Positions 11,998 to 57,081 are shown, counted from the first letter of the stretch. The stretch: 64,000 bases of DNA from an uncultured bacterium (GCA_964559225.1 CAZLGA010000005.1:185-64184); one strand, 5' to 3'. Notes: generated by a model not told the origin, from the letters alone. Translations and numbers: made by a program.

Positions 11998-13710
11998 CTA
12001 TGGATAATAAATATCATCAAATCTCTGTTTGAGTGTCCAGTAGAGATAGATTGAGAAGAAATCGGATTGAATTTGTTTTTTCTCTACCAATCTTCTGCCT
12101 TCTTTTATCTTTTTGATGTTGAATAGATATATACCTGACCTTGTCTCAAAAATTTTTCTTTCGCCTTTCTTCGCTTCAAAAACAGATTTTGAAAGAGGAA
12201 CCATTGCGTCGGGATAGACTTCTTTCTTTAAACTCAATTTTTTTATTTTCTTTACCGAATCTCTAACCATTGCACTATCCTTATCCCATTTTACAAATGC
12301 ATATTCAATCACCCGGTGCGGAGGTTCAAATAATTTATCCGGAATCTTCAAAATCGTTCTGTTCAAATATTCAAATCCTGCTACATCTGATCTTATTTTT
12401 TGGAGAAAACCATCTCTGTCTAAACCCATTGTTGATAAATCTCTATCAGGATTTAACGATAATGAAAATAGGAATCTTGCAAATTCAAATTCTTCACCAT
12501 ATTTTATATATACTCTGCCTTTCTCAATCCATTCTGGTTTTGCTAATTCTTTAAAGAATCCATTCGTATCTTGATTTTGGATAATTCCTGGTGTGGAATC
12601 CAACAAAATCATTGTGCTATCTAAAAGAATACCCAAATCTGCCATTGTATCAAGCGCAGCGAAATCAAAATAGGATATTCCTTTTCCTCCTGCCTGACGA
12701 ACATAACTAATTTCGGTATTTGCCTGGAGTTCCATCCCTTTCCACAGAAATCCTATACCCATTATTGCTGAAGGAAAATTATACAAAGAAAAATCCAAAA
12801 AATCCTTAAAAAGTTTTGTGTCTGTGGTATACGACATCACAACTGGATAATCGATCAAATCCTTCCATTCCCACCAGTTCTGTGCATACTGATATGCTGC
12901 CCTTGATGGGCTTGAAAAGACCGCACAGGAAATGATACAGTCTTTATTGATATTTTTGATTACAGGTCTAACCTGTTCCAAAAAATTATAAATTGTTCTC
13001 TGTCGTTTTTTATTCTCAAGAAAAAAATTATATACAACCCAACGATTGAAAAAATCCAATTGGGGGTATCTCAAAAGTGTAAGCCATCGCATATCACGAC
13101 TACCCTGTCCTGAAATCAGACCTACGACAAGCGTATCTTCTATACCCCAGAAAATTCCCGGAAATCTTATGAAATCAAAATGTATGCCATCAACTTTATG
13201 TTTTATGACAATCTCTTCACATATCTTTTTCAAAAAATCCTTAACTTCTTGACTGTATGGATTTATAAAAGTTCCCTCAAGACCAAAGTCCTTTTGTTCT
13301 TCTGGTGAATAATTAATCATACTTCTGCCTTTTATATCTTTCAATAACCATTCAGGATGTGTATAATAAATGTGCCTTGTGGAGTCCGGAAAACTATCCA
13401 GAGACCAGACAAGAAATGTATTTATCCAGGCATGGACTTTCATATTTTTCTTTTTTGCATATTTGATTATGGAATCGAGAGGAAAATAATCAGGTGGGGC
13501 ATTTTTTGACAGATACTGACTCCGGGGCAGTATATCGGATTTATAATATGAAGACCCCCCAATAACGACCTGGACATAAAGGTCGGTTATAGTTAATTTT
13601 TCTGCAAGATTTATTATCTGAGGTATTGAATTAGGAGAAGCAATGGATATTGCCCTAACCCAGAGACCCCTTTGAAAACCAAACAGAAATGTCAATAATA
13701 AAAGCGCCAT
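11998..13710 (-). CDS. glycoside hydrolase-like family 10 (GHL10/DUF187) lipoprotein with C-terminal ~200 aa extension
   Basis: Signal peptide, then a GLWV...N.VF.QV..GG..YY.S N-terminal pattern and the VHAWINTF motif. The stop abuts the mutL start. Confidence 0.5.
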   Translation of the reverse strand: MALLLLTFLFGFQRGLWVRAISIASPNSIPQIINLAEKLTITDLYVQVVIGGSSYYKSDILPRSQYLSKNAPPDYFPLDSIIKYAKKKNMKVHAWINTFLVWSLDSFPDSTRHIYYTHPEWLLKDIKGRSMINYSPEEQKDFGLEGTFINPYSQEVKDFLKKICEEIVIKHKVDGIHFDFIRFPGIFWGIEDTLVVGLISGQGSRDMRWLTLLRYPQLDFFNRWVVYNFFLENKKRQRTIYNFLEQVRPVIKNINKDCIISCAVFSSPSRAAYQYAQNWWEWKDLIDYPVVMSYTTDTKLFKDFLDFSLYNFPSAIMGIGFLWKGMELQANTEISYVRQAGGKGISYFDFAALDTMADLGILLDSTMILLDSTPGIIQNQDTNGFFKELAKPEWIEKGRVYIKYGEEFEFARFLFSLSLNPDRDLSTMGLDRDGFLQKIRSDVAGFEYLNRTILKIPDKLFEPPHRVIEYAFVKWDKDSAMVRDSVKKIKKLSLKKEVYPDAMVPLSKSVFEAKKGERKIFETRSGIYLFNIKKIKEGRRLVEKKQIQSDFFSIYLYWTLKQRFDDIYYP

Positions 13711-15402
13711 TTATCTTCCAAATCTCTGCCCTAAATCATCAAGGCTCATCTTTATGACGATAGGCCTTCCATGAGGACAGATAAATGGATTCTCACATGC
13801 AAATAAACGGTCAATGAGATTCTGCATTTCTGCAACCGAAAGCCTCTGCCCTGCCTTTATTGCCATCCGGCAGGCAATGACCTTTGCCAGTTCACTTTTC
13901 TGATTCATCACTTTACCAAGACTTCCAATCTCGCTAAAAAATCCCTTGAGGTCTTCCCTTGTAATCCTGGTATCCGAAGGGAGTGAGTCAATGACAAGGG
14001 TGCGGGCAGAAAACTCCTTGAATTCTATACCAAGTGCCTTCAAACTTTCTTTTGTCATCTGGTATATCCGGTACTCTTCAGGTGTGAGTTCAATGGTAAT
14101 CGGAAATAGTAAATGCTGTGAAGAACCCCGATTATTCATAATAGACTCATATAATATCCTTTCGTGTGCCGCATGCTGATCAATGATTATCAATCCTGTG
14201 CTGGTCTGGGCAAAGATATATGTGTTGTGTAACTGCCAGAAATCTCCAGTCTCACCTGTAGCGGTTGCAGTCTTGGTTGGTATCTCAGAATATGGAATAA
14301 GTGATTCCTGCACCAACCTAACATCCGCAGAAGAGACAGAACCGATCTCAGATGGATATTCTTTAACCGGAATCACAGGAAAAATTTTACTCTTTATCCC
14401 CTGGGTAAGGAGGTCCGTCACATACCTTTCTTCTTTTATCTTGACTTCATTCTTTGTGGGATGGATATTGACATCGAGCATCTGTGGCGGAATTTTTATA
14501 TTCAAAACATAATGGGGTGGTTCTTTTGGATTTTGATAGATTTCAGAAATCACCCTTGTAATACGTGGATATCTTACGGGTCTTGAGTTCACATAGAGCA
14601 GGCTTAAATTGAGTTTTTCACCCATATTAAAAGGAGATAAAAAGCCATAAAAATTTATCTCACCCACATCCAATTCAAAAGTTATGAATTTTTCTATCAG
14701 CCGGGCAGGATAGATTTGCAACAATCTAAACCTCAAGTCTTTTACTGATGGCAAATTCAAGATAGTCCTCTGTTCCTCAGCCAAAACGAAATGCACTTCA
14801 GGAGAAATAATGGCATATGTCTTTACTAAATCTATTATGAGACGTCGCTCATATTCGTCTGACTTCAAAAATTTTTTTCGCGCCGGCAGGTTGTAAAAAA
14901 GATTTGATACCCTTACCCTTGTTCCTTTTTCCCTGAAAATATCAATAACCTGTTTTATTTTTCCATCTTCAACTATTATCTTTGTTCCTTCCTTGCCATC
15001 AAAGGTCTCGATTTCAAAATGAGACACCTGGGCAATACTGGCAAGCGCTTCACCGCGAAATCCAAATGTCTTTATATTTTCCATATCTTCAACTTTCTCA
15101 ATCTTGCTCGTTGCATATCTTTCAACTGATAAAAGTGTATCTTCGCGGGACATTCCTGTCCCATCGTCATTCACAAGACATTTAGACTTGCCACCTGATT
15201 CAATCTCAATCTCTATCCTTTTTGCACCTGCATCAAGGGAATTTTCAATTAATTCCTTTATGACCGAAGAAGGTCGGATTATAACTTCACCAGCTGCAAT
15301 CTTGGAACGGACTTCTTCTGAAAGCAATCTAATCTTTGGCACAACATATTTTATTGAGACAAAGACCAAAGTCAAGGAGCACAGGAGATGGGTCCTCATC
15401 AT
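13711..15402 (-). CDS. mutL: DNA mismatch repair protein MutL
   Basis: IAAGEVIIRPSSVIKELIENSLDAGA (GHKL ATPase) and a C-terminal dimerisation domain. The true start is probably downstream of 15402, near the PKIRLL motif. Confidence 0.9.
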   Translation of the reverse strand: MMRTHLLCSLTLVFVSIKYVVPKIRLLSEEVRSKIAAGEVIIRPSSVIKELIENSLDAGAKRIEIEIESGGKSKCLVNDDGTGMSREDTLLSVERYATSKIEKVEDMENIKTFGFRGEALASIAQVSHFEIETFDGKEGTKIIVEDGKIKQVIDIFREKGTRVRVSNLFYNLPARKKFLKSDEYERRLIIDLVKTYAIISPEVHFVLAEEQRTILNLPSVKDLRFRLLQIYPARLIEKFITFELDVGEINFYGFLSPFNMGEKLNLSLLYVNSRPVRYPRITRVISEIYQNPKEPPHYVLNIKIPPQMLDVNIHPTKNEVKIKEERYVTDLLTQGIKSKIFPVIPVKEYPSEIGSVSSADVRLVQESLIPYSEIPTKTATATGETGDFWQLHNTYIFAQTSTGLIIIDQHAAHERILYESIMNNRGSSQHLLFPITIELTPEEYRIYQMTKESLKALGIEFKEFSARTLVIDSLPSDTRITREDLKGFFSEIGSLGKVMNQKSELAKVIACRMAIKAGQRLSVAEMQNLIDRLFACENPFICPHGRPIVIKMSLDDLGQRFGR

Positions 15403-15554
15403 TTTTTCCTATCCTTTTGATGGTGGAGGAAAAAGGTGGGGGTGATAACGAGCAATCCCCTCTTTTGCGTGTGGCTGATTATCTTGTTGATGAGGCTGGG
15501 CAGAATACCATTGAGCAGGAGTGTCTGAAGGCATTCATCTCAACTTTACTTTTA

Positions 15555-15835
15555 TTCTTCGACAGGAAGTAGACAAAAATCACATTTCCACCTACGAAGT
15601 GTATACCTACTGTCTCACCTGAACAATGACACACTGAACTCGTTTCAGCATCTCAATAGGTTGAATAGGTTGTTAAACATCTTTTTAGATTCCGAAACAA
15701 GTTCGGAATGACAGTAAGTGATAGTTCGGAATGACAGTAAGTAACGGTTCGAAACGACAATAAGGGATGGTTCGGTATAGCAATAAGTACAATAAGTAAT
15801 GATTCGGAATGACAATGATAAAACGAAAAGTGAGG
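15555..15835 (+). repeat. composite repeat element copy 1: conserved ~130 bp head, inverted repeat TTCCGAA-5-TTCGGAA, then 5 degenerate 23-bp tandem repeats (core GTTCGGAATGACA)
   Basis: About 85% identical to 20565-20920. The tandem units begin at 15701, 15724, 15747, 15770 and 15803. Confidence 0.85.
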
Positions 15836-16083
15836 AGGACTCAGGCAAAGGAGGGAACGACTGAGATCGGAATTAAGAAGTAAGAAACTACAAGCAAGAA
15901 GTGAAAAAAATGGTGGATGATAAAGAAAAGAGGTGGATATTGCAAACTGGGGTTTTCTGTGAATGATAATTTTGATTAAGCAGTGCCTAATTTTTTGAAT
16001 CGAACTTCACGAAATAGAGACCCGGAACAAAATCAGTGAGATTAAAATCAAATACACCCTGAATTTAGGCGAAACAAGTTGCC

Positions 16084-16111
16084 TTGACTTCTGTCTTAAA
16101 ATCAGTATAAT
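16084..16111 (+). promoter_or_regulatory. sigma70-like promoter TTGACT-16-TATAAT for sucCD-rbr
   Basis: TTGACT 16084-16089 and TATAAT 16106-16111. AAGGAGG sits 5 nt before the TTG start. Confidence 0.6.
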
Positions 16112-16135
16112 AAATTGCTAACTTAAGGAGGTAAT

Positions 16136-17266
16136 TTGAAAATCCATGAATATCAAGCAAAGGAATTTTTCAAAAAATATGGCATTCCAGTGCCGAAAGA
16201 AAAAGTCTGTTTCAATCTTAATGAAGTAATTCAGGCATCAAAGGAAATAGGGCTTCCCTGTGTAATAAAGGCACAGGTGATGGTCGGAGGCCGGGGTAAG
16301 GCTGGTGGAATAAAAGTTGCCAAGACAGAAGAAGAAGCAAAAAATTATGGTGCCCAGATACTCGGTATGGAGATAAAAGGAATACCGGTAAAGAAAGTTC
16401 TGGTTTCAGAAGCAGTAGGCATCGCCTCAGAAGCCTATCTCGGCATCATCATTGACCGCAATGAAAAAAAGACTGTTTTAATGGCATGCAAAGAAGGCGG
16501 TGTGGAGATTGAAGAAGTCGCAAAACAGAAACCCGAGGCGATATATAAGGTTTATGCTGACCCATTGCTCGGTCTGCTCGAACATAAGGCAAGGGAAATT
16601 GGTTTATTCTTATACGGAAGTTCCAAAACCGCGTTTGATTGTGCTTTAATTGCTGATAAACTTTACAAACTCTTTGTTGAAAATGATGCATCCCTGGCTG
16701 AAATAAACCCACTTGTAGTTGATAAAGCAGGAAATTTAATCGCACTTGATGCTAAAATAAATTTTGATGACAACGGTCTTTACCGCCATCCCGAGATTGA
16801 GGCGATAAGAGACAGAGAAAGTGAAGATGAAAACGAACTCCTTGCAAGAGAAAGGGATCTATCGTATGTCAAGCTCAACGGTAATATAGGTTGTGTGGTA
16901 AATGGTGCGGGACTGGCAATGGCAACAATGGACCTGGTAAAACATTTTGGCGGCGAACCGGCAAACTTCCTTGATATTGGCGGTTCATCGTCACCTGAAA
17001 AAGTAAAAAATGCATTGGAGATTCTTCTGCGTGACAAGAATGTAAAAGTGATATTCTTCAATATTTTTGGTGGTATTACGCGGTGCGATGATGTAGCACT
17101 GGGAATCCTTGAGGCAAAAAAATCATTAAATATTAAACAACCGATTGTCGCAAGGCTCACCGGGACAAATGAAGATAAGGCAATGGATATTCTCAAAGAG
17201 GCAGGATTGATATTTGCTAAGACAATGGATGAAGGCGCAAAAAAGTCAATCGAACTATTAAAATAG
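16136..17266 (+). CDS. sucC: succinate--CoA ligase (ADP-forming) beta subunit
   Basis: TTG start (MKIHEYQAKEFF). ATP-grasp and CoA-ligase domains are present. Confidence 0.95.
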   Translation: MKIHEYQAKEFFKKYGIPVPKEKVCFNLNEVIQASKEIGLPCVIKAQVMVGGRGKAGGIKVAKTEEEAKNYGAQILGMEIKGIPVKKVLVSEAVGIASEAYLGIIIDRNEKKTVLMACKEGGVEIEEVAKQKPEAIYKVYADPLLGLLEHKAREIGLFLYGSSKTAFDCALIADKLYKLFVENDASLAEINPLVVDKAGNLIALDAKINFDDNGLYRHPEIEAIRDRESEDENELLARERDLSYVKLNGNIGCVVNGAGLAMATMDLVKHFGGEPANFLDIGGSSSPEKVKNALEILLRDKNVKVIFFNIFGGITRCDDVALGILEAKKSLNIKQPIVARLTGTNEDKAMDILKEAGLIFAKTMDEGAKKSIELLK

Positions 17267-17278
17267 AAAGGAGCCTAA

Positions 17279-18148
17279 ATGAGTATTTTAGTAAATAAGA
17301 ATACAAGACTTGTGGTCCAGGGAATAACAGGACGAGATGGCAGCTTCCATACCCGTCAGATGTTAAATTATGGCACGAATGTTGTTGCTGGTGTAACACC
17401 AGGTAAAGGTGGAATCGAGGTTGAAGGTGTACCAGTATTCAACTCTGTGGCTGAGGCTGTAAAAACGACTGATGCGAATACATCGGTGATATTTGTGCCA
17501 GCAAAATTTGCACCGAGTGCAATGTATGAGGCAATTGATGCAGGTATAGAATTGGTTGTATGTATTTCTGAAGGAATCCCCACAATTGAAATGGTGAAAA
17601 TTATGGCATACTTAAAAGATAAAAAATGCAGGCTTATTGGACCGAACTCACCAGGACTTGTATCCGCAGGCGAGGCAAAAGTAGGTATTTTACCCGGGCA
17701 CATATTCAAGAAAGGCAAAATAGGCGTGGTCTCGCGCAGTGGAACCCTGACTTATGAAATTGTTGACCATATAACAAAGATTGGACTTGGAGAATCAACC
17801 TGTATTGGTATTGGTGGCGACCCCATAATCGGAACAAAATTCATTGATTGTCTTGAATTATTTGCCAATGACCCTGAGACCGAAGCAGTTGTAATTGTTG
17901 GTGAGATTGGCGGTAGGGATGAACAAGATGCTGCCGAATATATCAAAAAATATTTTAAAAAACCGGTCTTTAGTTTCATTGCCGGAAAGACTGCACCACC
18001 GGATAAAAGAATGGGTCATGCCGGTGCCATAATCTCAGGAACTGCTGGAACTGCCGCAGAAAAGGTGAAGGCGTTTGAGTCCGCAGGTGTGAAAGTTGGT
18101 GAAACCCCAGCAGAGGTAGCAGAATTGATAAAATCAACGATTAAATAA
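17279..18148 (+). CDS. sucD: succinate--CoA ligase alpha subunit
   Basis: The [10 protein letters not shown] phosphohistidine region is conserved. AGGAG RBS. Confidence 0.95.
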
Positions 18149-18157
18149 GGAGAAGAT

Positions 18158-18736
18158 ATGGGAAAGTCATTAAAAGGGACAAAGACTGAAAAAAACTTAT
18201 TAATCTCTTTTGCTGGTGAAAGTCAAGCAAGGAATCGTTATACATATTTTGCATCTGCAGCAAGAAAAGAAGGATTTGAACAAATTTCCGCGATATTCCT
18301 TGAGACCGCGGATAATGAAAAAGAACATGCCAAGGTATTTTTCAAATATCTTGAAGGTGGAGAACTTGAAATCACTGCGGAGTATCCTGCGGGTATGATA
18401 AAAGATACGCTGACAAATCTCCAATCAGCGGCAGATGGTGAAAGACTTGAATGGTCAAAATTGTACGCAGACTTTGCAAAAATTGCTGATGAAGAAGGAT
18501 TTTTAGAGATTGCAAAATCATTCAAAGAGATAGCAAAGGTTGAACAATTCCATGAATCACGGTATAGAAGTTTGATCGATAATATCAAAAACGGGACTGT
18601 TTTCAAAAAAGAAAAAACAGCAAAATGGCATTGCAGGAATTGTGGATATATTTATGAAGGGACCGAGGCACCGAAGGAATGCCCGGCGTGCAGGCATCCA
18701 CAATCTTTTTACGAAATCCTTGCAGAGAATTATTAA
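18158..18736 (+). CDS. rubrerythrin
   Basis: Ferritin-like diiron domain with ExxH motifs and a C-terminal rubredoxin-like CRNCG...CPAC. Lies 10 nt after sucD, so it is cotranscribed. Confidence 0.9.
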   Translation: MGKSLKGTKTEKNLLISFAGESQARNRYTYFASAARKEGFEQISAIFLETADNEKEHAKVFFKYLEGGELEITAEYPAGMIKDTLTNLQSAADGERLEWSKLYADFAKIADEEGFLEIAKSFKEIAKVEQFHESRYRSLIDNIKNGTVFKKEKTAKWHCRNCGYIYEGTEAPKECPACRHPQSFYEILAENY

Positions 18737-18751
18737 AAGATGTGTTCAAAT

Positions 18752-19771
18752 CTACTTTAACCCACCAGCAAGCTGACCACAGCCTGCAAGAATTTCTTTA
18801 CCCTTTGATTTACGAAGGGTAACAGGATGGTCAGAATTAAATAATATCTCTTGGAATTTTGCAACCGTATCAGAGGTAGGAGTTTCATAAGGTAAGTCGG
18901 GATAGGGATTATAAGGAATTAAGTTTATCTTTGAAGGAATACCTTTTATTAATGTCAAGAGTTGATGTGCATCTTTTGCAGAATCATTCAAACCTCTAAT
19001 CAATACATATTCAAATGTAACCATTTGTTTTTTTTCTGAATATAATCGTGCAATTTTCAAAATTTCTTTTAATGGATTGTTTTTTGCTAACGGCATATAT
19101 TTTTCACGCATTGTCTGTTCTGCAAAATTTAGAGAGATTGCGAGTTTAACCTTCCATTTTGAATTTAAAAGTTTTTCAATACCTTCAATTATTCCGGCAG
19201 TTGAGATTGTAATATGGCGTTGACCTATACCGAGTCCTATTGAAGATGTGATAATTTCAAGTGAAATAAAGACATTTTCTATATTCAAAAGTGGTTCACC
19301 CATACCCATAAATACGATATTGGTTAACTTATCGTTAATTGATTTCTGGACAAGTTGAACCTGATTGGCAATCTCAAATCCTTTTAAATTTCTTTTAAAA
19401 CCGCCAACCCCAGTTGCACAGAATAAACATCCCAGAGGACAGCCGACCTGGGTTGATATACAGACGGTCCTTCTTGGCAACTCCGGGATAAAGACTGTTT
19501 CAATAAAATTTTTATCACTCAATTCCCATAAATACTTTTCTGTGCTGTCAGATGCCTTTATTGTTTTTACAAGCTTGATATCTTCAATTGTGAATTTGTC
19601 AAAAAGCAATCTTCTTAAATCAAGCGAAAGGTTCGTCATCTGATTAAAATCATTGACACCTTTCTGCCATAACCACTGAAAAATCTGACGGCCGCGATAT
19701 GCTTCAAGATTCATATCTTTGAATAAATTCTCAAGCTCGGAAAGGGCAAATTCTTTTATATTTTGCCTCAT
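18752..19771 (-). CDS. rlmN: 23S rRNA (adenine2503-C2)-methyltransferase RlmN
   Basis: Radical SAM CPLGCLFCATG and typical RlmN N-terminal region. Confidence 0.9.
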   Translation of the reverse strand: MRQNIKEFALSELENLFKDMNLEAYRGRQIFQWLWQKGVNDFNQMTNLSLDLRRLLFDKFTIEDIKLVKTIKASDSTEKYLWELSDKNFIETVFIPELPRRTVCISTQVGCPLGCLFCATGVGGFKRNLKGFEIANQVQLVQKSINDKLTNIVFMGMGEPLLNIENVFISLEIITSSIGLGIGQRHITISTAGIIEGIEKLLNSKWKVKLAISLNFAEQTMREKYMPLAKNNPLKEILKIARLYSEKKQMVTFEYVLIRGLNDSAKDAHQLLTLIKGIPSKINLIPYNPYPDLPYETPTSDTVAKFQEILFNSDHPVTLRKSKGKEILAGCGQLAGGLK

Positions 19772-19798
19772 ATAAATTCTGTGTGGAATTCCAAATGT

Positions 19799-20505
19799 TT
19801 ATATTATCCTGCCGATACGCTCAATTCTAATTTCTTTCCATCTCCAGAATTGTAATATATCCAAAAGGCTTGATGCCTCACGACCCGGATTAAAAGAAAA
19901 GTAAATAAATAATGGCTTGCCCTTCAGGTATTTTTTATGCAATGGTCCCCAGAATCTGGAATCCATTGAATTATCCCGATTATCACCCATTGCAAAAACA
20001 CAATCTTCAGGGACAACAACAGGACCAAAATTATCTCTTATGTAGATTCCATACAGGTCAGCAAACTTTGAATTCTCCCAGTTTTTTTGATAATTTGCAC
20101 CATCATTCATATAGCCCGGCAGGGTGCGCGGGTCGCGATGGATTTTATAAGGTTCATCTACAGGTTTGCCGTTTATATATAAGACCTTATTTACAATTTT
20201 TACTGTATCACCTGCTACTGCCACACATCTTTTGACATAATCACGATTCTCAAATGGATATTTAAAAACTATTATCTCTCCCCTGTTTGGCATTCTGCCT
20301 GGTATCATCTGTAATTGAGTATATGGAAATTTTATTCCATAAATAAAACGATTAACAAGGAGTGCATCTCCGATAAGAAGGGTCTTTTCCATTGAACCCG
20401 TAGGTATGACATACGCTTCAACAAAAACTGCCCTGAGAATTAGAACAACGAGTATCACAATAGTCCAGGAATAAATCTCTCTTTTTAATTTTTCCATAGA
20501 TTTAA
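19799..20505 (-). CDS. lepB: signal peptidase I
   Basis: S26 motifs GSMEKTLLIGD and GDNRDNSMDSRFWG. The annotated start at 20602 would lie inside repeat copy 2, so a start at 20505 or 20486 is more likely. Confidence 0.85.
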
Positions 20506-20564
20506 TTATATGCATCAGACAGTGAAAGTCAATAATGAAACGTGCTGAGTCCTCCTCATTTTTT

Positions 20565-20920
20565 AACTCTACAGGAAACAGACAAAAATACCCTATTTCC
20601 ACTTACGAGATGGATGCCTACCGCCGTTTCTCACTGAACTATCTCCTTCTGAACAATGTTATGCTGAACCCGTTTCAGCATCTCAATAGGTTGGGTAGGT
20701 TGTTAAACATCTCTTTAGATTCCGAAACAAGTTCGGAATGACAGTGAGTGATAGTTCGGAATGACAGTAAATGTTAGTTCGGAATGACAATAAGTGATAA
20801 TCCGAAATGACTTAAGTGATGGTTCGGAATGAAATGAGAATATGAATGGCTCGGAATGACAAAGAATATAGTATTGGAATGATAAAAGGGGATATAACCC
20901 TATTTCCACTTACGAAGTGT
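20565..20920 (+). repeat. composite repeat element copy 2: same head, TTCCGAA/TTCGGAA inverted repeat, 7-8 degenerate 23-bp tandem repeats, flanked by direct repeat CCCTATTTCCACTTACGA
   Basis: The direct repeat occurs at 20591-20608 and 20898-20915. Tandem units start at 20731. The sequence aligns with copy 1. Confidence 0.85.
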
Positions 20921-21069
20921 TATAGGTATGGGGCAAATAAATTATTTTTAATTTTAACAAGTGAAAAGTGGAGATGACTCAGTGAAACGTGTAATAGTGG
21001 TTAACCAAGCAATAAATAGACTGGTAGTCAGTAACCCCGTAGCCGGTTAAATGAAGTGAATAAAGACCC

Positions 21070-21097
21070 TTGACAGCATAATAGAATTAAGTATACT
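21070..21097 (+). promoter_or_regulatory. sigma70-like promoter TTGACA-16-TATACT for the S8 peptidase gene
   Basis: TTGACA 21070-21075 and TATACT 21092-21097. A GGAGG RBS precedes the ATG at 21134. Confidence 0.55.
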
Positions 21098-56561: not shown

Positions 56562-57081
56562 TAAAAATTTTAACAGAAGTAAATTTTTGATTAAACTTAA
56601 ACGTGTTTTTTGATTGAGGGAAAACCACGGATACAATACTTTCCGGTGCCGCATTAAATAAAATCTTTGCCAAAACCATTGGGACAAACTCGAAGATTGT
56701 CATTGATAATCAAATTGAGAAGCGGGTGATAAGAGCGGACAGGGCTGATATACATGAAGTACAATCTATCACAAGTAAATAAGTCCAGAAAAAAGAAGAT
56801 GCCGTTATCTTTGAAAATATGTCCTTAAACATCGAGGTGCAACCGCTCGAAATTGAAGAAATACAAATGCCCAAATACTGGAACCGAATTTAGGAATCTA
56901 CCCCAATCCATTTTAGGATAAACTGGATATCCGATGCAGGATACGGTATGGAAAGAGATGTAGTTTGTACTCCTTTGCCTTCCAGAGCCTATTTTGTGCA
57001 ATTAGAAGACAATAATTTTACAAGGATTGGAAAGTTAGTATTATTGAGATAAAAGGATTAGACTGAAATCGCTCCCACACT

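Follow-up and report, generated by a model that had tools for sequence, protein, structure and literature searches.

A probable non-autonomous transposon with a core of GTC-tagged hairpins beside divergent promoters of a candidate division WOR-3 bacterium

The bacterial transposons Tn10/IS10 and Tn5/IS50 generate a 9-bp target duplication upon insertion, and within the IS4 family, the IS10/IS50 group is characterized by CTGAG tips combined with a duplication of this length. Transposition through single-stranded hairpins by RAYT and IS200/IS605 enzymes leaves no target duplication. Among short tagged palindromes, the CGTC-tagged repetitive extragenic palindromes (REPs), a class that includes Neisseria dRS3 and Rickettsia RPE-4/6, have a CGTC (or TGTC/CCTC) tag that stays unpaired, a stem of 8-9 bp with AT at its start, a loop of 4-5 nt and a 3-nt tail, and occur as inverted dimers able to fold separately or into a single long stem (PMC3733652, Di Nocera et al. 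2013). dRS3 is part of the 28-nt hairpin NTS, which is bound and cut solely as single-stranded DNA, and on one strand only, by SsnA, a 94-aa single-domain GIY-YIG protein that does not bind the RNA form (PMC11893778, Nat Commun 2025). Binding by SsnA depends critically on the C that follows the palindrome, and the three bases that precede it (GTC) are important for cleavage; the loop is not required, and two half-sites supplied in trans are enough. Such hairpins typically lie on both sides of ssnA genes, and NTS-ssnA-NTS has been suggested to be a mobile element (PMC11893778). Here we describe a composite repeat present twice in a 64,000-nucleotide stretch of DNA from an uncultured bacterium (GCA_964559225.1 CAZLGA010000005.1:185-64184, hereafter the window), which joins transposon-like ends and 9-bp duplications to a core of hairpins of this class.

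A first-pass annotation of the window had reported a novel composite repeat lying twice in the same orientation between divergently transcribed operons, and had proposed that it was either a MITE-like mobile element (miniature inverted-repeat transposable element) or a phased array of regulator-binding sites. The repetition is real and far beyond chance: Tandem Repeats Finder detects two arrays with a 23-bp period and the common consensus AGTTCGGAATGACAGTAAGTGAT, one at 15700-15775 (score 96) and the other at 20730-20832 (score 136); in a repeat search, 15619-15768 recurs in direct orientation at 20649-20798, over 150 nt and with 89% identity; and the full-length copies are 80.5% identical over 298 shared positions. 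The limits of the repeat had to be moved, with copy 1 starting ~170 bp further left and copy 2 ending ~60 bp further right than annotated, so that copy 1 spans 15388-15844 (457 bp) and copy 2 spans 20545-20982 (438 bp). The flanking genes had been correctly named as mutL, sucC, sucD, rubrerythrin, lepB (Peptidase_S26) and an S8 peptidase gene with a Por_Secre_tail, as judged from Pfam annotation of identical or near-identical contigs, which also identifies RlmN. The two repeats are, with good probability, old copies of a non-autonomous DNA transposon (MITE) of ~440-460 bp that carries a gene-less hairpin module, an assessment that covers jointly the MITE ends, IS4-type movement, the offset from promoters and the relation of the hairpin core to Ssn substrates. 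The parts of both copies, with H1 and H2 denoting the two hairpins, and the adjacent promoter-like sites are as follows.

15348-15375, minus strand: native promoter-like site of mutL, TTGACT-16-TAAAAT (promoter scan; hexamers conserved in the element-free relative L122)
15379-15387, unstranded: copy 1 left target duplication GCACAGGAG, matching 15845-15853 at 8/9 positions and abutting the inverted repeat
15388-15406, plus strand: copy 1 left terminal inverted repeat ATGGGTCCTCATCATTTTT, with a degenerate tip (repeat search; five-end alignment)
15409-15556, unstranded: copy 1 extra 148-bp segment, absent from copy 2 (copy alignment) and unique in the window
15563-15600, plus strand: copy 1 head, ACAGGAAGTAGACAAAAAT..ATTTCCACCTACGA, conserved in both copies
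15627-15654, plus strand: copy 1 hairpin H1, degenerate, TGAC / ACACTGAA / CTCGT / TTCAGCAT / CTC (anchored hairpin scan; 3/5 outer pairs left)
15686-15713, minus strand: copy 1 hairpin H2, tag strand, TGTC / ATTCCGAA / CTTGT / TTCGGAAT / CTA (8/8 pairs, TGTC tag, C right after the palindrome)
15701-15814, plus strand: copy 1 array of 5 units, each GTTCGGAATGACA plus ~10 nt, unit 1 being the 3' arm of H2 (Tandem Repeats Finder; mismatches to consensus 0, 0, 2, 3, 1)
15826-15844, minus strand: copy 1 right terminal inverted repeat, reverse complement CTGAGTCCTCCTCACTTTT (repeat search; end alignment)
15845-15853, unstranded: copy 1 right target duplication GCAAAGGAG (compared with the left duplication)
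20505-20532, minus strand: native promoter-like site of lepB, TTGACT-16-TATAAT (promoter scan, 11/12; conserved in the element-free relatives L122 and L124)
20536-20544, unstranded: copy 2 left target duplication TGAAACGTG, the same 9-mer as at 20983-20991
20545-20563, plus strand: copy 2 left terminal inverted repeat CTGAGTCCTCCTCATTTTT, pairing with 20964-20982 (end alignment)
20571-20609, plus strand: copy 2 head, with the first copy of an internal 19-bp direct repeat at 20590-20608 (sequence reading, repeat search, copy alignment)
20628-20669, plus strand: copy 2 short left array, three pyrimidine-rich units of 15-16 nt each ending in CTGAAC, the outer arm of H1 (sequence reading); copy 1 has one unit fewer (copy alignment)
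20657-20684, plus strand: copy 2 hairpin H1, TGTT / ATGCTGAA / CCCGT / TTCAGCAT / CTC, with an 8-bp stem
20716-20743, minus strand: copy 2 hairpin H2, tag strand, TGTC / ATTCCGAA / CTTGT / TTCGGAAT / CTA (anchored hairpin scan)
20731-20884, plus strand: copy 2 array of 7 units with periods of 23, 23, 23, 22, 27 and 23 (Tandem Repeats Finder; mismatches 0, 0, 0, 4, 1, 1, 4)
20897-20963, plus strand: copy 2 second internal direct repeat, then tail GGGGCAAAT..ATTTTAACAAGTG, the tail 84% identical to that of a third copy (L121/L135)
20964-20982, minus strand: copy 2 right terminal inverted repeat, reverse complement CTGAGTCATCTCCACTTTT (repeat search; end alignment)
20983-20991, unstranded: copy 2 right target duplication TGAAACGTG, identical to the left one

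Both ends of each copy carry an imperfect 19-bp terminal inverted repeat, CTGAGTCCTCCTCAYTTTT. An inverted-repeat search pairs 15389-15406 with 15826-15843 (83% complementarity) and 20545-20563 with 20964-20982, and an alignment of five ends, one of them the right end of the third copy, gives CTG(A/G)GTC(C/A)TC..TCAYTTTT, a type of site found nowhere else in the 64-kb window. Directly outside the tips lie 9-bp target duplications, identical at 9/9 positions in copy 2 (TGAAACGTG/TGAAACGTG) and at 8/9 in copy 1 (GCACAGGAG/GCAAAGGAG), the chance of direct repeats of this quality being ~4e-6 and 1e-4 per fixed position, respectively. In agreement with the first-pass annotation, which had noted no open reading frame (ORF), transposase or cas gene for either copy, the ORFs crossing the arrays reach 64-78 aa only and are spurious; a 23-bp period cannot hold a reading frame. 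Inverted ends, fixed-length duplications, small size, lack of an ORF and empty sites in relatives together lead to the classification as a MITE. As a kind of element, such a non-autonomous transposon is ordinary, and no host function is necessary to explain it.

The 148 bp extra to copy 1 follow directly after the left inverted repeat, have T-rich borders and overlap a 78-aa ORF (15336-15572, plus strand) that may be spurious; the segment could be a nested insertion. Copy 2 contains a direct repeat of 18/19 bp at 20590-20608 and 20897-20915, which had been taken to bound the copy and proves to be internal. Its sequence is similar to the inner portion of the terminal inverted repeat (ATTTCCACTTACGAAGTG vs ATCTCCACTTTTCACTTG), and these internal repeats could be subterminal transposase sites. 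In the third copy, at a different locus, the motif likewise comes after the array, and it was for this reason rejected as a target duplication.

A DDE transposase supplied in trans and cutting with a 9-bp stagger would have moved the element. Judged from sequence, the closest known type would be that of the IS4 family (IS10/IS50), as a likeness of working rather than of membership, the placement being drawn solely from the ends and the duplication length. The element shares CTGAG and a CCTCAT..TTT stretch with the outer end of IS10, CTGAGAGATCCCCTCATAATTT, which is found 37/37 identical in plasmid R100 beside a gene annotated as 'IS4-like element ISVsa5 family transposase'. Further points in common with IS10/IS50-derived MITEs are the length of ~450 bp, the lack of an ORF, the 9-bp duplication and presence or absence among relatives. 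It differs from them in that its interior is a hairpin module of cross-phylum occurrence and not a deleted insertion sequence, and from the IS10 target consensus in inserting at a fixed offset from a -35 hexamer. Two other ways of reading the repeated units as traces of transposition were also rejected: multi-site ends of the Tn7/Mu/Tn402 kind, since the best-kept unit is innermost and not at the tip, and excision footprints with target duplications of their own, since the inter-unit stretches are specific to the family and not to the locus.

The host is a candidate division WOR-3 bacterium, and relatives were found through SucC, with named matches mostly from WOR-3. In a relative with 96% identical SucC and conserved synteny (L122, GCA_965649105.1), the mutL|sucC spacer measures 104 bp and the lepB|S8 peptidase spacer 326 bp; neither contains a trace of the element, and the flanks align across the insertion point. 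When the element and one duplicate are removed from the copy 2 site, the remaining sequence aligns with this relative on both sides. The lepB|S8 peptidase spacer of two further relatives (L124/L125, SucC 90%) is 115 bp long and element-free. Four further loci from relatives also lack the element, and no copy was found in ~150 kb of sequence from eight relatives. A metagenome scan with a lineage-specific 25-mer returned a single extra locus, a third copy upstream of yfhO in the rpoN|yfhO spacer of contig FMJZ01076476.1, whose metagenome assembly (FMJZ01) also has contigs encoding proteins identical to those of the window. The corresponding spacer of L136/L137 (YfhO 86% identical) is 100 bp long and empty. 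Inverted repeat, head, hairpins, array and tail form an outer structure common to all three copies. The examination of relatives and metagenomes that the first-pass annotation had proposed thus returned a further copy at an unrelated locus, 9-bp duplications and empty orthologous sites, in line with its MITE-like reading.

Two observations concern the surroundings of the copies. Between copy 1 and the sucC promoter lies a 230-bp purine-rich stretch (15854-16083) that is absent from the closest relative and contains the unit-like scraps GATCGGAATTAAG and GAAAAGAGGTGGAT, with no significant similarity of the stretch as a whole to the element; it may be an older relic. The contigs of two independent short-read assemblies of this organism (Logan SRR7473445, FMJZ01) end at or inside both copies, at ~15445-15455, 15815, 20608, 20855 and 20932, for which the internal tandem repeats alone could be an adequate cause; the break at ~15450 lies within the 148-bp segment that copy 2 lacks.

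The placement between divergent promoters that had been annotated holds for all three copies, each of which lies in a spacer between back-to-back promoters, and is more precise than first noted. A native TTGACT -35 hexamer lies at a distance of exactly 12 bp from one tip in three of three copies, an interval made up of 3 nt and the 9-bp duplication; the layout at 15370-15387, at 20527-20544 and at positions 340-372 of the third locus (L135) is AGTCAA, 3 nt, the 9-bp duplication and the element tip. The hexamers of mutL (15370-15375) and lepB (20527-20532) come from a promoter scan, and that of yfhO was read from the sequence. Because they are present in element-free relatives, these hexamers are not derived from the element; because the window holds 42 hexamers of this kind on both strands, the hexamer alone does not define the target. 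The same offset in three independent insertions is hard to attribute to selection alone and points to target choice. We speculate that the resemblance of the tip, CTGAGTC(A/C) (CTGAGTCA), to AAGTCAA is how the site is found. The promoter of the opposite gene also lies outside the element (promoter scan; sucC 16084-16111, S8 peptidase 21070-21097), and since neither promoter is broken, the element would easily survive there. At mutL (15340-15375), the promoter-like site is followed after ~5 nt by a likely GTG start (VPKIRLL...), the gene callers having picked an upstream TTG; the spacing suggests that the mutL message may be leaderless or nearly so.

Two GTC-tagged 8-bp hairpins in inverted orientation, of the CGTC-REP/dRS3/NTS type, make up the core of the element. 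Both copies contain the head and the CTGAAC..GTTTCAG hairpin (H1) as annotated; the inverted repeat TTCCGAA-ACAAG-TTCGGAA (H2) likewise exists, with arms of 8 bp (ATTCCGAA/TTCGGAAT) instead of the 7 bp assigned to it. On its tag strand, H2 reads TGTCATTCCGAACTTGTTTCGGAATCTA, with the tag TGTC in both copies, and the tag of H1 is degenerate (TGTT in copy 2, TGAC in copy 1); a C directly follows the palindrome in H1 and H2 of both copies. H1 and H2 of copy 2 fold as separate hairpins or as one long stem. Across all the DNA examined, an anchored search on the inner 11 nt recovered 19/23 hairpins with all five outer pairs and four different stems, and a CGTC or TGTC tag in 17/20 hairpins. In most other lineages, two stem positions are mismatched in a fixed, strand-specific way that gives tandem G.A pairs and GNA loops on the tag strand, and a single-strand hairpin therefore fits better than a duplex operator.

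The window hairpins resemble the CGTC-tagged REPs in tag, AT-starting 8-bp stem, 5-nt loop, 3-nt tail, inverted dimers and absence of an attached transposase gene. Whereas the tail consensus of the REPs is CCA, the tails here are CTA/CTC, also of 3 nt and starting with C; the stems here are AT-rich, and WOR-3 is not among the five phyla reported (PMC3733652). CGTC-tagged REPs number tens to thousands per genome and lie mostly between unidirectional or convergent genes, whereas the window has two copies, both between divergent genes. REPIN/BIME sequences with RAYT (IS200/IS605-like Y1) transposases are similar in being intergenic inverted pairs of short tagged palindromes; they are many-copy and thought to act as single-strand hairpins, and they differ in tag (GTAG there, GTC here) and in the 9-bp duplications seen here.

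To follow the module beyond WOR-3, we scanned one genome per species with a 10-mer pattern for two adjacent units, which returned at least 119 loci, the host genome not being among the matches listed. The module, defined as a complementary arm upstream followed by an array, is present in 94 of these at least 119 loci, in at least 12 phyla, which among the matches listed include Chloroflexota, Spirochaetota, Bacteroidota, Acidobacteriota, Nitrospirota, Bacillota, Planctomycetota, Armatimonadota and Patescibacteria; a complementary arm lies upstream of 302 of the 354 arrays in these matches. In its full form the module comprises two inverted hairpins, each made of a (C/T)GTC tag, an 8-bp stem with AT at its start, a 5-nt loop and a C right behind the stem, with tandem echoes of outer arm and tag on the outer sides. 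A Treponema locus (L054) matches ATTCCGAAACAAGTTCGGAATGACA at 28/28 positions and also has a GCTGAACTCGTTTCAGCATC hairpin. A crude count of the context of family loci gave 48 divergent and 20 convergent cases. Housekeeping clusters are the only recurrent neighbours, and no recurrent transposase, RAYT/Y1 included, lies near any of the at least 119 loci. No related element was found in viral contigs by pattern.

A Dehalococcoidia genome (OZ253489.1) alone supplies at least 20 of the loci among the matches listed, and at one of them (L061, 3200-4700) modules lie head to tail, with eight pattern matches in ~1.3 kb, each module consisting of left echoes (units repeating the hairpin's outer arm), a hairpin, a 70-nt structured spacer, a hairpin and right echoes. 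The 25 listed loci without the hairpin-plus-array module proved unrelated where inspected, being other iterons, integrase C-termini or a coding repeat: in L011 and L108, AAA/DUF4143 ATPase genes are preceded upstream by GATTCGGAATGAA direct repeats of 21-22 bp, L012, L047, L055 and L093 are integrase C-termini beside tRNA genes in Alphaproteobacteria, and L095 is a Gly/Met-rich coding repeat.

Three of the at least 119 loci contain a small GIY-YIG gene (phmmer), in each case confirmed as PF01541 by Pfam. The predicted proteins are single-domain and 94-97 aa long, and their genes lie between H1- and H2-type hairpins with the arrays outside:

L067, 4334-4615: GIY-YIG gene of Treponema, between module hairpins
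L082, 1594-1887: GIY-YIG gene of Scalindua, between module hairpins
L100, 6292-6576: GIY-YIG gene of Dehalococcoidia, between module hairpins

The hairpins of the Treponema locus, CGTCATGCTGAACTTGTTTCAGCATC and TGTCATCCCGAACTTGATTCGGGATCTA, are near-identical to those of the window. Searches of PDB and NCBIfam added nothing to the Pfam GIY-YIG assignment of the three genes. The Treponema gene has close homologues on up to 371 contigs each, which suggests that these are themselves multi-copy or mobile.

By analogy with NTS and SsnA, we infer that the window core is a gene-less, Ssn-related motif pair whose tag strand an Ssn-type nuclease would recognize in single-stranded form. It shares with NTS the GTC upstream of the palindrome (H2), the C right after it and strand-specific features, and in L067, L082 and L100 the module surrounds its GIY-YIG gene as the hairpins do in NTS-ssnA-NTS; it differs in that the module sits within a transposon with inverted-repeat ends and target duplications. 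In another reading, the hairpin module is itself mobile in the manner of a REP or REPIN, through a RAYT-type Y1 transposase or an Ssn nuclease, the CTGAG ends and 9-bp repeats being incidental. In many phyla the module does lack these inverted repeats and is often found in tandem, and it brackets GIY-YIG genes in a layout like that of an insertion sequence, much as was raised for NTS-ssnA-NTS (PMC11893778). We nonetheless consider such independent mobility unlikely in this lineage: all three copies retain the full outer structure, repeats of 9/9 and 8/9 outside the tips are very improbable by chance, the IS200/IS605/RAYT route would give no target duplication, and no Y1 transposase was seen near family members.

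Several points weigh against a MITE of IS4-type movement with an Ssn-related core. No transposase with these ends was found in the window (Pfam annotation included) or near the other family loci. The left tip of copy 1 is degenerate (ATGGG vs CTGAG), and the known copies amount to two plus one on a separate contig, where the left end is lost at the contig end and origin from the same genome is not shown. The mutL|sucC empty site is not clean because the spacers of the relatives have diverged, and the window's own spacer has the extra 230 bp outside the element. Since the copies are ~80% alike, activity was not recent. For the core, the published SRM pattern (HGTCWYN(0-2)YYVSBRHN(0-5)WNVSBRGN(0-2)RNCYNB) finds nothing in the window; NTS and the L100 hairpins conform to it, and those of L067 and L082 do not. 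A GIY-YIG gene was seen neither in the host DNA examined nor in ~250 kb from WOR-3 relatives, and no WOR-3-named protein is among the best 120 homologues of the Treponema (L067) nuclease, most of which are unnamed and all of the named ones from Treponema or Spirochaetaceae. The origin proposed below for the arrays is purely inferential.

Each unit of the 23-bp array consists of the outer arm and tag of H2 (GTTCGGAAT-GACA) followed by ~10 nt, so that the array is a series of half-hairpin echoes beside the complete hairpin. The counts of five units in copy 1 and seven in copy 2 agree with those first annotated; the repeat search recovers eight in-register unit copies, and 7/8 of the window's exact TTCGGAATGA sites fall inside the two arrays. 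The inter-unit 10-nt stretches are copies of one another, so that entire units would have been duplicated in tandem to give the array. Arrays of the family number 2-13 units with a period of 19-30 bp (mode 22-23), and units become less faithful with distance from the hairpin: the mean number of mismatches to consensus is 0.42 in unit 1, 0.78 in unit 2, 1.77 in unit 3 and 2.08 in the last unit; in 95 arrays the first unit matches more closely than the last, and in 9 less closely (Wilcoxon p = 4e-15). This polarity is unchanged after dropping the top-contributing genome, a Dehalococcoidia metagenome-assembled genome. H1 has a shorter echo array of its own on the opposite side, and an equivalent echo arrangement accompanies a sister hairpin type in a different WOR-3 genome. 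In that genome (L128), the long spacers at 600-1360 and 13260-14080 hold sister hairpins TGTCATTGCGAG...GAAGCAATC with echo arrays, together with a second palindrome family, CCCCTCACC...GGTGAGGGG.

By analogy with NTS, each echo corresponds on the tag strand to the first half of a nuclease substrate, comprising the cut site together with one half of the palindrome. Units would be added by local duplication beside the hairpin, older units decaying outward, and repeated cycles of nuclease action and repair might add them next to the hairpin; alternatively, the echoes may serve as alternative substrates that pair with the single inner arm. We put forward only tentatively the joint proposal that echo arrays grow by nuclease and repair or act as alternative substrates and that the MITE seeks promoters at a fixed 12-bp offset. 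No description of echo arrays or of promoter-keyed insertion was found in the literature searched; tandem half-hairpin arrays are not mentioned in PMC3733652 or PMC11893778, the word 'tandem' having 0 occurrences in the latter.

The arrays are also central to the other reading first offered for the repeat, in which the 23-bp units and the palindrome are phased transcription-factor sites that co-regulate the flanking divergent operons, the palindrome acting as operator and the direct repeats as auxiliary sites. The element does lie upstream of the -35 boxes of four predicted promoters, a palindrome followed by half-site direct repeats resembles an operator-plus-iteron layout, and 23 bp is close to two helical turns. 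Yet the period spans 19-30 bp across the family, so helical phasing is not conserved; close relatives have the same promoters without the element; and identical 13-mer arrays lie beside unrelated genes in at least 12 phyla. Moreover, units decay outward from the hairpin, the strand-specific arm differences in most relatives indicate a single-strand hairpin and not a duplex operator, and the whole unit has transposon ends and target duplications. A regulatory array, which these results contradict, is accordingly quite improbable. A guide array of the CRISPR type was also rejected, the 10-nt inter-unit stretches being alike, cas genes being absent and the lone Rfam CRISPR match lying elsewhere and below threshold. 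Hammerhead and other ribozyme motifs, attC sites and guide arrays fit poorly on reading the sequences, with no formal test.

Structure prediction, which the first-pass annotation had recommended, gave a divided result. The H1-spacer-H2 segment folds better than shuffled sequences on the minus strand (z -3.5 and -2.0), as is expected of an inverted hairpin pair, whereas the whole element does not (z -1.3 and -1.7). The folded segment, together with the GGA in the units (UUCGGAAUGA), could be taken to indicate a small-RNA gene, either a CsrB/RsmZ-like protein sponge with GGA motifs or a structured non-coding RNA. We regard this as very unlikely, since the GGA motifs are not in hairpin loops, no promoter or terminator is predicted for the element, close relatives lack it, and neither the window nor three related loci match a relevant Rfam family at the gathering threshold or at E <= 10; furthermore, the nuclease published for such hairpins fails to bind them as RNA (PMC11893778). 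Finally, ~22-bp direct repeats beside an inverted repeat of the same sequence are a classic iteron/operator layout, but a relic replication origin of an integrated plasmid or phage, with direct repeats binding Rep and the palindrome as rep operator, is scarcely credible given two copies 5 kb apart with transposon ends and target duplications, housekeeping loci syntenic with relatives, no rep, par or integrase gene nearby and no related element in viral contigs.

With respect to the novelty first claimed for the repeat, the hairpins belong to a published class (PMC3733652, PMC11893778), while the combination of a MITE with a GTC-tagged, nuclease-associated hairpin module, polar echo arrays and a fixed -35 offset seems to be new. 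For WOR-3, a defined mobile element with exact ends aids genome annotation and assembly, as short-read contigs break at its copies. More broadly, the comparison joins three literatures on one hairpin class, those on CGTC-tagged REPs, Neisseria dRS3/NTS and Ssn nucleases, and extends the class to AT-rich stems missed by the published pattern and to phyla such as WOR-3, Spirochaetota and Chloroflexota. The polarity of the half-site arrays, and the arrays themselves, provide a testable handle on how nuclease-associated repeats multiply, and the fixed -35 offset suggests a promoter-seeking, non-disrupting transposon, with a bearing on intergenic growth in compact genomes. If true generally, echo growth or promoter keying would be a new mechanism of repeat growth or target choice.

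The four longest stretches of the window without an ORF measure 733, 570, 520 and 516 bp, and the first and last of these are the two spacers that hold the copies. Of the other two, both from a crude ORF call, that at 56562-57081 resembles decayed coding sequence, and that at 1443-2012 reads like a membrane protease gene split by the ORF caller.

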